Assembly (NCBI GenBank): GCA_016748015.1
Contig: JAAOMT010000494.1
Span: forward strand, 550,190 to 614,189
Origin: Geosiphon pyriformis uo1
Taxonomy: Eukaryota; Fungi; Glomeromycota
Length of the DNA: 64,000 nt
Direction of reading: 5' to 3'
This document shows, piece by piece, positions 37,918 to 39,427 of the stretch (positions are counted from its first letter, which is position 1; each line of letters opens with the position of its first letter). The notes beneath the pieces were generated by a model. It saw only the letters and a list, made by a program, of their open reading frames with translations, was not told the DNA's origin and did no database searches. A program made the translations under genes and the position numbers.

Positions 37918-38553
37918 ATGGAAATACCAGATCACATTCACACCATAGCTTAAAAACTGTCCCAGACACTAAATCAACAACAGTTAGACATGGAAATTGT
38001 CATTAACAACCAAACAATTTGCTATCAAAACACAAAAAGAAAGACAAAAAATACACCATATCAGCAGCCACCAAAGAATAATAAAAACTGGACAGATAAC
38101 TTAGTAGAAAAAGTGAAGAACACTTTTGGGAAAATATCTATTATGGCACCAACAAAAGAGCTTACAAAAAAAAATTGGAAGCAATGGACAGAACGACTTC
38201 CAATATCATATTGCTACTACCAGTTAGGTCGAAAGTTGAATATTCAGGAGTTATATATTGACAAATTTAAGAGAATATTCAACCAAGACATAATACAACA
38301 AATTGAAGAATTTATCGGAAAGAAAACTAATTCAACACTATATGTTAAAACAATATACCAATTACACAACATATTTCAGAACTATTCAGAAATACTGTTA
38401 TACTCTAACATGGAAACCATAACCATTAACCAATGAAGAAAAATAAACAATACACAAGTAGAAGACATGAAAAACAGAGTCGAACAAACAATACTTGAAA
38501 AAGAAGTATTAGAATTAATTCAAAATAAAGATTTTGATAGAGCTCAATATTAA
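37918..38553 (+). pseudogene. Element D ORF3 (211 codons, two premature stops), unknown function
   Basis: ATG 37918 in frame with ORF 37990-38436 and with TAA 38551-38553 at the PPT; no signal peptide or TM segment. Confidence 0.8.
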
Positions 38554-38566
38554 AAGAAAGAAATAA

Positions 38567-39427
38567 TATTACTCATAAAAAAAAACAGATATAGAAAATA
38601 GCAGACCAATGAGAGAATAGTATTTAGCATGTGAGCATATTGTTCAGCAATGTGGAGCAATGTCAGAAATTATGACACATTGTTCAGCAATATAGAGCAA
38701 TGTCAAAAAACACAGCACATTGCTCAGTAATATGGAGCAATATTAGAAAATTAGAGCACATTGCTCAGCAATGTAAGCATTGCTCAAAAAATCATAGCAC
38801 ATTGCTCGGAAATGTGAGCGATCTCATAGAACATCAATTATATATATAGTGGTAGTGTTAAAAGTAGAAAAAGAAGAATTTTTAGTTAGAAATCTCCTAT
38901 TCACAAATATTGAATAAATAAATTATTTACCATCCAAATCCATTCTTTACTATCAACACTTCATGTTGATAGCAATTAATACTTAACCACACTGGAACAA
39001 TAGCTCTTGATCATGACTATTGACAAATACTAACTTGTGTATTGCTTTGGCTCATTTTTTTATGTTATTTTTTTTATTTTCTTGTTTTATTTGTTGTTAT
39101 TACTAACTCTATTAAGGATTAAAGCATGGGGTACTGACATCAGAATATAGCACTGGTAAAAGACCCAGAAATAAAGGTAGAACACTTGATTGAAGTTAGT
39201 TTATTAGGAGAAACACCAGCCATCACACTGAGAAAGAAATTGACAAAACTGTGGTTTTGGGAAGCTACAGATAAAACTATTACCACTGAATTTCTGTCCA
39301 TTATACAAGAAACTCTACAACAAAACCTTCAGATAACACACCTTCAGATTTTATCATTGACAACAGCCTTGAATACCAAGTTATGGGTTTGTTATTTACT
39401 TTGACAACCAAGTAATCACCTGTAACA
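38567..39427 (+). repeat. 3' LTR of element D
   Basis: Colinear with 29285-30170; one fewer palindrome in the array. Confidence 0.95.

Follow-up and report, generated by a model that had tools for sequence, protein, structure and literature searches.

The LTR retrotransposons found in this 64,000-nucleotide stretch of Geosiphon pyriformis DNA (the window, analysed over its full length) carry a third reading frame (ORF3) ahead of the 3' LTR, and tandem repeats in the U3 region of the LTRs. Is ORF3 a true gene, and may its product act on the repeats, as supposed in the first-pass annotation, in which protein and array were viewed as a cognate pair? Third ORFs unrelated to env are known in LTR retrotransposons, and very few have an assigned function. 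Searches of the literature returned no mention of such an ORF in LTR retrotransposons of Glomeromycota. According to PMC11952901, the genome of this lineage underwent a large LTR expansion.

Host elements and their U3 arrays

Elements are denoted A to E. D is nested inside C, which is split by the insertion at 29284/39428. C and D represent the same family, with internal regions 82% identical, and their LTRs (TGTTAC...GTAACA) measure ~886 bp, which corrects an earlier estimate of ~575 bp. The LTRs and U3 repeats of the window are as follows.

29285..30170, plus strand: 5' LTR of D, containing an array at 29348-29555 and followed by the PBS TGGTGCTCCCTGTGAGG at 30173-30189
38567..39427, plus strand: 3' LTR of D (~886-bp family)
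38633..38826, plus strand: array in U3 of the D 3' LTR; 40-bp unit present 4.8 times, 19-bp palindrome five times
38839..38849, plus strand: LTR TATA box (TATATATATAG) of the D 3' LTR
25129..26013, minus strand: 3' LTR of C; array at 25760-25944
44488..45372, minus strand: 5' LTR of C; array at 45115-45303
4029..5090, minus strand: 3' LTR of A, with the array of 10-bp ATAAC units at 4868-5005 and AGCAAT four times within 4801-4857
13157..14208, minus strand: 5' LTR of A, with its array at 13998-14170 and AGCAAT five times within 13919-13996
17124..17320, plus strand: beginning of the B LTR, which shares the TGTTACTCATAAA start and the TATA with C/D and has GGAATTCC/AATTCC units instead of the palindrome array
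48628..48725, plus strand: four loose TT(T/C/G)GCC(A/G)AAAT units, downstream of E ORF3

In both D and C, 2 nt separate the 5' LTR from the PBS, and the PPT AAGAAAGAAA precedes the 3' LTR. Pfam domains in D, read through with X, occur in the order Retrotrans_gag, Asp protease, dUTPase, RVT_1, RT_RNaseH, Integrase_H2C2, rve. By its TG...CA LTRs, PBS, PPT, and gag followed by protease-RT-RNase H-integrase, D is classed among the Ty3/gypsy elements (Metaviridae). Repeats in the window are marked by C-targeted hypermutation, with 296 transitions vs 9 transversions in the LTR pairs. Every CpN context is affected, and both strands symmetrically. Since the LTRs of one element differ, mutation arose after integration; being symmetric as well, it acts on genomic DNA, not on reverse transcripts.

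Units of 40 bp were detected by Tandem Repeats Finder at 25760-25944, 29348-29498, 38633-38826 and 45115-45303. In C/D they carry the 19-bp palindrome CACATTGCTCAGCAATGTG, five per LTR. Allowing up to 3 mismatches, 20 sites were found, 5 in each of the four C/D LTRs and nowhere else in the window (37 strand matches vs 0.01 expected), and the palindromic array first described for this family is therefore real. The C/D arrays stop 13–20 nt upstream of the LTR TATA box. The palindrome may bear a partial likeness to the consensus sequences of RFX X-box, C/EBP or Maf sites. An array had also been reported in A. It exists, but is made of 16 direct 10-bp ATAAC units (4868-5005, 13998-14170) rather than mainly of palindromes; TGTTATAACA, the palindrome named for A, occurs once per A LTR. 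Arrays are short in B (4.5 copies of 8 bp) and E (2 copies of 21 bp, or 4 loose TTGCC-type units). B keeps the C/D LTR scaffold with different units, and the array region thus turns over as a module. Each LTR type has distinct units, as had been stated, but these are not wholly private, since clusters of the half-site hexamer AGCAAT are common to the U3 of A and C/D.

ORF3 copies, relatives and constraint

Features in and around ORF3 are the following.

37859..37861, plus strand: first in-frame stop past the conserved pol C-terminus (DLEPIIVIEPNTLN) in D
37876..37882, plus strand: TATAAAG, 36-42 nt upstream of the D ORF3 ATG
37918..38553, plus strand: ORF3 of D; 212 codons with its stop codon counted, interrupted by stops at codons 12 and 173
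38158..38517, plus strand: conserved basic ORF3 domain, residues 81-200, predicted all-helical (model pLDDT 79-93; cross-subfamily conservation)
38554..38566, plus strand: polypurine tract, immediately after the D ORF3 stop; same arrangement in A
26033..26664, minus strand: ORF3 of C; start codon changed from ATG to ATA, with stops and a single frameshift
5114..5846, minus strand: ORF3 of A; ATG at 5846, stops, frameshift near 5553-5590
47740..48435, plus strand: ORF3 of E, heavily decayed; C-terminal two thirds (47974-48432) confirmed by homology

An accessory ORF between integrase and polypurine tract had been claimed for all elements with a 3' end, and homologues (~190–235 codons) do reside there in 4/4 (A, C, D, E). 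The D copy (37918-38553), which carries two internal stops, was the tblastn query. On the minus strand it identified C ORF3 at 26033-26664, with one frameshift and with 71% identity across 156 aa and 83% across 77 aa, and A ORF3 at 5174-5566, with 31% identity across 132 aa (E 1.5e-18). E ORF3 (47974-48432) was found only through the metagenome relatives P0060 (E 2e-11) and P0065 (E 3.5e-13); P0003, the intact 211-aa ORF3 protein of G. pyriformis, gave a weaker match (E 0.005), and the N-terminal motif in E was assigned by eye. The residue pattern reported as shared is visible in the family alignments, as Y-Y/F-x-h-G ... Y-x-L-x3-F ... T-h-x-N-x2-G-x-h.

D ORF3 begins 57 nt downstream of the stop at 37859..37861, in a different frame. 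This stop may be that of pol in the decayed D copy, the original one lying perhaps elsewhere. A TATA-like box is found ~40–50 nt upstream of the ORF3 ATG in D, C and A; TATAAAG is kept in C, and A has TATATATAG at a similar place. The D box is a candidate internal promoter, a lead only, as chance occurrence is possible in AT-rich DNA. In D, in A and in L001, a metagenome contig, the ATG is preceded by A at -3 and followed by G at +4.

Relatives of ORF3 number 59 at E<=1e-3 among 1.84 billion representatives. D ORF3 is 81% identical to P0003 over the full length, A ORF3 77% identical to P0011. L001, one locus from a single-protein metagenome scan, features an intact 230-aa ORF3 after RT-RNase H-integrase, separated from pol by a 316-nt non-coding spacer; a scan of viral contigs with P0065 found nothing. 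The N-terminus M-(E/D)-(I/L)-x-(D/N)-x-I-x2-L-x2-Q-L is alignable across subfamilies, and conservation spans at least five of them. To judge from the sequences retrieved, the family appears confined to one lineage.

Pfam searches with ORF3 alone and with 25 family members (max_evalue 10 and 1) found no family at cut-off, env families included, the best score of P0003 being 16.6 bits vs a cut-off of 27. A PDB sequence search with the ORF3 profile gave 0 matches at E<=10. SH3_Tf2-1 and Retrotrans_gag matches in some relatives come from chimeric gene models that include pieces of pol or gag. P0007, P0008, P0029 and P0031, in which the ORF3 C-terminus is joined to an LTR ORF, were treated as annotation artefacts of decayed copies. 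The ESM Atlas returned unnamed Mucoromycota clusters and inconsistent names (closterovirus coat, T4 RegA), and was uninformative.

Neutral evolution, named beforehand as an outcome that would speak against the cognate-pair idea, does not describe ORF3, which behaves like integrase in the frame-shift control. Between D and C, pN/pS is 0.26 in frame vs 0.37 and 0.86 in the shifted frames for ORF3 (just 77 differences, with frame +1 near frame 0), 0.32 in frame vs 0.42 and 0.97 for integrase, and 0.57–0.79 in non-coding LTR DNA. Between D and A, second codon positions of ORF3 are the most conserved (0.66 vs 0.46 and 0.53), dN/dS is 0.49 for ORF3 and 0.15 for integrase, and the non-synonymous rate dN of ORF3 is about twofold that of integrase (0.57 vs 0.28). 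ORF3 looks constrained. Having its own conserved ATG, intact copies and an integrase-like synonymous excess, it is regarded as a genuine accessory gene, and by sequence comparison it stands for a new family of accessory genes carried by Ty3/gypsy elements of fungi.

Architecture of the predicted protein

ORF3 had been described as basic and devoid of env features, and both traits are confirmed. The pI is 9.3, rising to 9.9 in residues 95-175 and falling to 4.2 in the tail (176-211). Neither the signal peptide nor the transmembrane anchor expected of env was found in ORF3; in intact P0003 the highest 19-residue Kyte-Doolittle mean is 0.44, and there is no hydrophobic segment. The acidic C-terminal tail is conserved in ORF3 copies of the C/D, A and MEITDN types. 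With 37 homologues supplied, AlphaFold yielded a model with mean pLDDT 77.7, made of a helix and a hairpin, a disordered lysine-rich linker, and a confident helical domain; an earlier run with 6 sequences (pLDDT 41.9) was discarded.

Fold searches, carried out with the whole-protein model, found no match in PDB (Foldseek, best E 2.1) or in the viral structure library BFVD (best E 0.2). Of the 48,161 chains compared by VIA-align none reached a Z of 5 (best 3.6), and a second structural comparison gave a best Z of 2.5. The weak VIA-align matches include DNA-binding helical domains (Capicua C1, RptR, KorB), tied with unrelated ones. As the model matched no structure, a helix-turn-helix was neither found nor excluded, and a new fold is not claimed. 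ORF3 is an orphan, without recognised family or fold.

A presumed motif resemblance between this domain and the N-terminal SAM-like domain of tyrosine recombinases found no support: Phage_int_SAM is absent among the Pfam matches listed (best 25 of 38 families, 25 members, E<=1), and a SAM-like core-binding domain among the listed fold matches. The homodimer prediction scored 0.00, the fold of the partner being uncertain in the program used, and has no evidential weight. As modelled, the NLS-like linker, the basic helical domain and the acidic tail are compatible with a transactivator, as with other nuclear roles.

Possible roles of ORF3 and the arrays

That C and D are alike, and A and E different, in both ORF3 and array had been taken as support for covariation. 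The argument has no weight, given shared descent: C and D share the two because they are copies of one family, A and E differ in the two because they belong to other families. It is tentatively proposed, at a probability of about 0.35, that ORF3 is a nuclear nucleic-acid-binding regulator which raises expression of its own element via the U3 arrays, directly or with host factors. Direct, sequence-specific recognition of the arrays by ORF3 is pure hypothesis, and improbable. In the proposed mechanism, ORF3, an accessory gene conserved in a lineage of dUTPase-carrying Ty3/gypsy retrotransposons in a Geosiphon-like fungus, would be expressed from a subgenomic mRNA, as the spacer on L001 and the TATA-like box upstream of the ATG suggest. 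The lysine-rich linker would direct the protein to the nucleus, the basic helical domain would bind nucleic acids, the acidic hydrophobic tail would activate, and the protein would act via the arrays that immediately precede the LTR TATA box.

Some known systems combine similar parts. Spumaretrovirus Tas (Bel-1) is encoded by an accessory ORF located 3' of the structural genes and served by an internal promoter. ORF3 is likewise small, 3' of the structural genes, possibly provided with a promoter of its own, and basic up to a C-terminal tail that is acidic; its target repeats would be in U3. In contrast to Tas, no env gene lies between pol and ORF3, the element is Ty3/gypsy and resides in a fungus, DNA binding is hypothetical, and there is no similarity in sequence or fold, as judged from viral structures and from the Pfam families at cut-off, which may or may not include a Tas model. 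HTLV-1 has three 21-bp U3 repeats, which are bound by host CREB dimers and through which Tax acts. Tandem U3 units with a palindromic dimer-type site, just upstream of TATA, are found here too, and ORF3, a 3' accessory protein as Tax is, could act through host dimers instead of by itself. Unlike HTLV-1, the unit measures 40 bp and contains a 19-bp palindrome, homology is missing, and the host partner is hypothetical.

VANC proteins are anti-silencing factors of Arabidopsis VANDAL transposons, for which Hosaka et al. 2017 (PMC5735166) report binding and hypomethylation demonstrated by ChIP-seq, EMSA and bisulfite sequencing. VANDALs combine an accessory protein with tandem short motifs in their own non-coding DNA that vary between related families; similar motif turnover separates the sequences of B and C/D. 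VANDALs differ from the present element as plant DNA transposons, and ORF3 is not known to be homologous to VANC. Comparable too are the dUTPase-encoding LTR retrotransposons of bdelloid rotifers, known for ORF3 diversity (Rodriguez et al. 2017, PMC5408684). They are Ty3/gypsy-like and encode a dUTPase domain, and pol is followed by a third ORF other than env. ORF3s there described are env-like, GDSL esterases or DEDDy exonucleases; the present ORF3 matches none of these in Pfam and has no enzymatic signature.

Against a regulator, no DNA-binding or other known fold or family has been recognised for ORF3, and A and C/D ORF3 are just 31% identical, yet AGCAAT clusters reside in the U3 of both. 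A shared host factor explains the latter at least as well. Tandem repeats in U3 commonly serve LTR elements as enhancers and require no binder encoded by the element itself; the 75-bp repeats of the retrovirus MLV and the U3 boxes of the plant retrotransposons Tnt1 and Tto1 are tandem enhancers bound by host factors. The present arrays resemble these in position, copy number and rapid turnover, though their reader may differ. It is possible, if on the unlikely side, that the arrays are enhancers read only by host transcription-factor dimers, and that ORF3 works post-transcriptionally or at the particle level (RNA export, translation, packaging, import of the preintegration complex, integration targeting). 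The arrays occupy the usual host-factor position, directly upstream of the TATA box; Pfam found no chromodomain after the integrase of D, a gap that a separate targeting factor could fill; and a basic protein with an NLS-like linker suits RNA binding or nuclear import equally. Against this, the searches with ORF3 recovered no fold of RNA-binding, capsid or tethering type, and a conserved acidic C-terminal tail would be more typical of activators.

ORF3 could instead be a counter-defence protein that blocks the hypermutation machinery, RNAi or methylation by protein contact, with no sequence-specific DNA recognition, and would then resemble Vif or Bet, which act against deaminases. We hold this doubtful. 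Hypermutation as extreme as that of the window implies a strong defence to counter, ORF3 is lineage-restricted, and its raised dN is like that of arms-race genes, but mutation is strand-symmetric, post-integration and on genomic DNA, all copies in the window are hypermutated although ORF3 is present, and no similarity to known antagonists was found in Pfam or the viral structure library. A frame nonfunctional as protein, reflecting cis-acting RNA or DNA signals before the PPT or a decayed captured fragment, is very improbable: although the final ORF3 codons and the polypurine tract are conserved in nucleotides between A and D and every copy of the window is broken, the protein is conserved at 25–40% identity between families with no nucleotide-level match (none was found between the D and A ORF3 regions), second codon positions are conserved, ORF3 is intact in several lineages, one with in-frame stops in pol, and a confident compact fold is predicted once the 37 homologues are supplied.

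To return to the regulator proposed above, its strongest form is a long shot: ORF3 would be the first activator or anti-silencer with sequence specificity to be encoded by an LTR retrotransposon of a fungus, a new DNA-binding fold co-evolving with the U3 arrays, and a private switch of the Tas or VANC kind against C-to-T hypermutation. A compact, confidently folding family without known relatives adjoins modular promoter arrays, and makes a clean test system of one protein, one 40-bp unit and one reporter. If ORF3 regulates its own LTR, it would show how retrotransposons hold their own transcription under private control where a fungus heavily mutates its repeats; if it does not, it would still be a new accessory function for Ty3/gypsy elements.

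Nested elements and hypermutated repeats

The window holds nested Ty3/gypsy LTR retrotransposons and, next to them at 50.7-62 kb, ordinary host genes with introns. Elements were mapped by self-comparison of the window and by a four-way alignment of the LTRs.

Elements with paired LTRs
29285-39427, plus strand: element D (LTRs 29285-30170 and 38567-39427)
25129-29284 plus 39428-45372, minus strand: element C (LTRs 25129-26013 and 44488-45372)
4029-5090 and 13157-14208, minus strand: LTRs (1062 bp) of element A

LTRs of the C/D family measure ~886 bp, start with TGTTAC and end with GTAACA; in both 5' copies the primer-binding site TGGTGCTCCCTGTGAGG is found 2 nt past the LTR. 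According to the self-comparison, D sits within C, an element of the same family, and splits it at 29284/39428, the halves 25129-29284 and 39428-45372 being collinear with D 35301-39182 and 29287-35304, respectively. The D insertion is flanked by ACAA and ATGA, which could be a 4-bp target duplication changed by transitions. Pfam domains on the D translation, read through with X at stops, are ordered as gag, protease, dUTPase, RT, RNase H, integrase, and no chromodomain was found in it. The dUTPase domain separates protease from RT, at 34200-35009 in D and 40044-40781 in C (Pfam E 6.6e-8); among LTR elements, some of fungi and of rotifers are known to carry one. Element B has no 3' end within the window. 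A 276-bp repeat (84% identity) is present at 19966-20241, within B, and at 49062-49337, 3' of element E. The host genes (50697-62094; introns, 35-38% GC) directly border the transposon nest and, judged by eye from translations, include a pseudouridine-synthase-like gene, one for a kexin-like subtilisin that has a P domain, and one for a leucine-rich-repeat protein.

Comparison of the LTR pairs of D (29285-30170/38567-39427), C (44488-45372/25129-26013) and A (13157-14208/4029-5090) revealed 296 transitions, equally C/T and G/A, and 9 transversions. Cytosines changed in all contexts (CpG 26/30, CpC 43/119, CpA 148/450, CpT 78/334). Repeats in the window have undergone C-targeted hypermutation after integration, in a glomeromycete-like genome; LTR divergence of 10-12% is therefore unusable as an age clock for these elements. 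RIP-like signatures are described as unique to ascomycetes in a 2025 kingdom-wide screen (PMC12543289).

The ORF3 family

The accessory ORF called ORF3 is located between integrase and the polypurine tract, which immediately follows its 3' end. The first-pass annotation had assigned it to every element with a 3' end, and homologous copies occur in 4/4 (A, C, D, E). The D copy (37918-38553) has 2 internal stops. The C copy, with one frameshift, is 71% identical to it across 156 aa and 83% across 77 aa; the A copy is 31% identical across 132 aa (E 1.5e-18). The E copy is so heavily decayed that the D query misses it (E 0.005), and it is matched by the metagenome relatives P0060 and P0065 at E 2e-11 and 3.5e-13, respectively. 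ORF3 is in a different frame from pol, and in D starts 57 nt past the first in-frame stop after the conserved pol C-terminus. Its N-terminus is alignable across subfamilies from the first methionine, and the ATG context in D, A and the related metagenome contig L001 features A at -3 and G at +4. In D, C and A, TATA-like boxes lie 36-52 nt 5' of the ATG; as the DNA is AT-rich, they are weak evidence for a subgenomic mRNA.

Best protein matches are Geosiphon pyriformis "hypothetical proteins", the closest 81% identical over the full length. When 1.84 billion representatives were searched with a profile, 59 proteins matched at E<=1e-3, of which 38 passed E<=1e-10 and 11 passed E<=1e-30; many of the 59 are chimeric gene models from decayed copies. 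Among 20 members looked up, 18 are named Geosiphon pyriformis and 2 are metagenome-only. The family includes at least five subfamilies (C/D-type, A-type, MILIPEN-type, MEITDN-type and the metagenome P0060/P0065 type). The architecture of L001 (3713 bp) matches that of the window elements, with RT, RNase H, integrase, a 316-nt spacer closed in every frame, an intact 230-codon ORF3, and then AT-rich DNA that contains short tandem units. The L001 pol is interrupted by two in-frame stops (772-774 and 1564-1566), for which decay, sequencing error and read-through are candidates; ORF3 is nonetheless intact.

A frame of ~90 codons is found within R/U5 of the C/D LTR (29881-30168 and 39138-39404), just 3' of a branch-point-like TACTAAC followed by CAG. 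In four public gene models (P0007, P0008, P0029, P0031) the C-terminus of ORF3 is joined to this frame by splicing across U3; this could be an annotation artefact, or the frame could be gag, or a leader ORF, beginning within the LTR.

Between D and A, protein identity is 31% in ORF3 and 58% in integrase. Nucleotide identities at codon positions 1/2/3 are 0.46/0.66/0.53 and 0.67/0.81/0.53, and Nei-Gojobori dN/dS, with dS near saturation, is 0.49 and 0.15, respectively. Since mutation between D and C is almost purely transitional, shifted reading frames and non-coding LTR served as controls.

pN/pS between D and C
ORF3: 0.26 in frame; shifted frames 0.37, 0.86
Integrase: 0.32 in frame; shifted frames 0.42, 0.97
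RT: 0.23 in frame; shifted frames 0.82, 0.89
LTR: 0.57-0.79, non-coding, arbitrary frames

From the in-frame and shifted-frame values ORF3 behaves like integrase, in a small sample of 77 differences, and neutral evolution, named at the outset as one finding that would sink the proposal, is not what is seen.

Tandem arrays at the promoter

The 40-bp tandem units reported for the C/D LTRs were recovered by Tandem Repeats Finder in all four. Each unit contains, in this order, a 19-bp palindrome, CACATTGCT-C-AGCAATGTG, one further AGCAAT and an A-rich spacer. Allowing <=3 mismatches, the palindrome marks 20 sites in 64 kb, 5 in each C/D LTR and 0 elsewhere (37 strand matches observed, 0.01 expected). 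The array starts past a CCAAT-like box, ~70 nt into the LTR, and stops 13-20 nt short of TATATATATAG, a position which places it in U3 at the promoter. Tandem units are real also in A, where 16 units of 10 bp, built on an ATAAC core, stand in direct orientation, but the motif proposed for them, TGTTATAACA, is a two-unit junction found once per LTR. In the A-family U3 the ATAAC units are followed by 4-5 copies of AGCAAT, and then by a TATA box.

AGCAAT, the half-site of the C/D palindrome, is twice as frequent as expected in the window (118 observed, 60 expected) and clustered in U3 of C/D and also of the unrelated-looking A LTRs (4801-4857 and 13919-13996). The idea of family-specific motifs holds for the palindrome, confined to C/D LTRs, but not for the AGCAAT cluster, which may be a binding-site core common to both families. 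In the B LTR the start, CCAAT-like box and TATA are as in C/D, and GGAATTCC/AATTCC units replace the palindromes, indicating that the array region turns over as a module within a scaffold that is conserved. E and L001 carry few loose TTGCC-type units.

Possible functions of ORF3

ORF3 had been suggested to be a dimeric protein recognising the array of its own LTR, on the ground that the two covary. Given family membership, any two element features would covary so: C and D, of which one is inserted in the other, are copies of a single family and therefore have both in common, and A and E, being from different families, differ in both. The informative comparison would be B with C/D, but B lacks a 3' end in the window.

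The intact 211-aa Geosiphon protein P0003 (pI 9.3) has no hydrophobic segment (top 19-residue hydropathy 0.44), in keeping with the reported lack of env features, and combines a basic core (residues 95-175, pI 9.9) with an acidic tail (176-211, pI 4.2). AlphaFold pLDDT was 41.9 with 6 sequences and 77.7 with 37 homologues (pTM 0.62). From the N-terminus, the latter model has a helix and a beta-hairpin (pLDDT ~60-70), a disordered linker rich in lysine, and a helical domain, where pLDDT averaged per ten-residue block is 79-93 over residues 81-200. The suggested structural check thus yielded a confident helical model but no known fold, as Foldseek recognised none in PDB (best E 2.1) or among viral models (best E 0.2). 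Pfam gave nothing close to cut-off for ORF3 or 25 family members, and a PDB sequence search 0 matches at E<=10. VIA-align against 48,161 chains reached Z 3.6 at best, 0 with Z>=5, and 2.5 in a second look. A few weak structure matches are DNA-binding helical domains, tied with unrelated ones.

The gene, its constraint and the position of the arrays at the promoter are observed. ORF3 is tentatively read, at a probability of about 0.35, as a nuclear regulator of the expression of its own element that would work at the U3 arrays, either by itself or by way of host dimers. The closed L001 spacer and the TATA-like boxes in D, C and A suggest that it would be made from a subgenomic mRNA; it would be localised to the nucleus, bind nucleic acid and activate through the acidic tail. 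Direct sequence-specific binding of the arrays is improbable. For the AGCAAT cluster that A and C/D have in common, a shared host factor is no worse an explanation than a conserved specificity of ORF3, and it is possible, if still doubtful, that the arrays are host-only enhancers and ORF3 acts post-transcriptionally or at a particle or integration step. A counter-defence protein working by protein contact is a rather unlikely alternative. That ORF3 is a non-functional frame is very unlikely.

As a regulator, ORF3 would have its nearest functional counterparts in the regulatory genes found 3' in complex retroviruses, such as Tas, with an internal promoter, and Tax, with 21-bp repeats, though it seems a member of neither. 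The system also resembles VANC of VANDAL transposons, to which ORF3 does not appear to belong; VANC targets form variable tandem repeats (PMC5735166). In bdelloid rotifers, dUTPase-bearing LTR elements with non-env ORF3s are described, but of types that differ from the present one (PMC5408684). No description of this ORF3 was found among the papers listed on Geosiphon transposable elements, among the matches listed for additional ORFs in gypsy elements, or in term-matched passages of a 2011 fungal LTR survey, and titles and abstracts on arbuscular mycorrhizal retrotransposon ORF3s held nothing relevant. ORF3 thus represents a real family of accessory genes, undescribed until now, from a Ty3/gypsy lineage of fungi; the promoter arrays beside it are real as well, and the proposed pairing of the two is a bare hypothesis, though a testable one.
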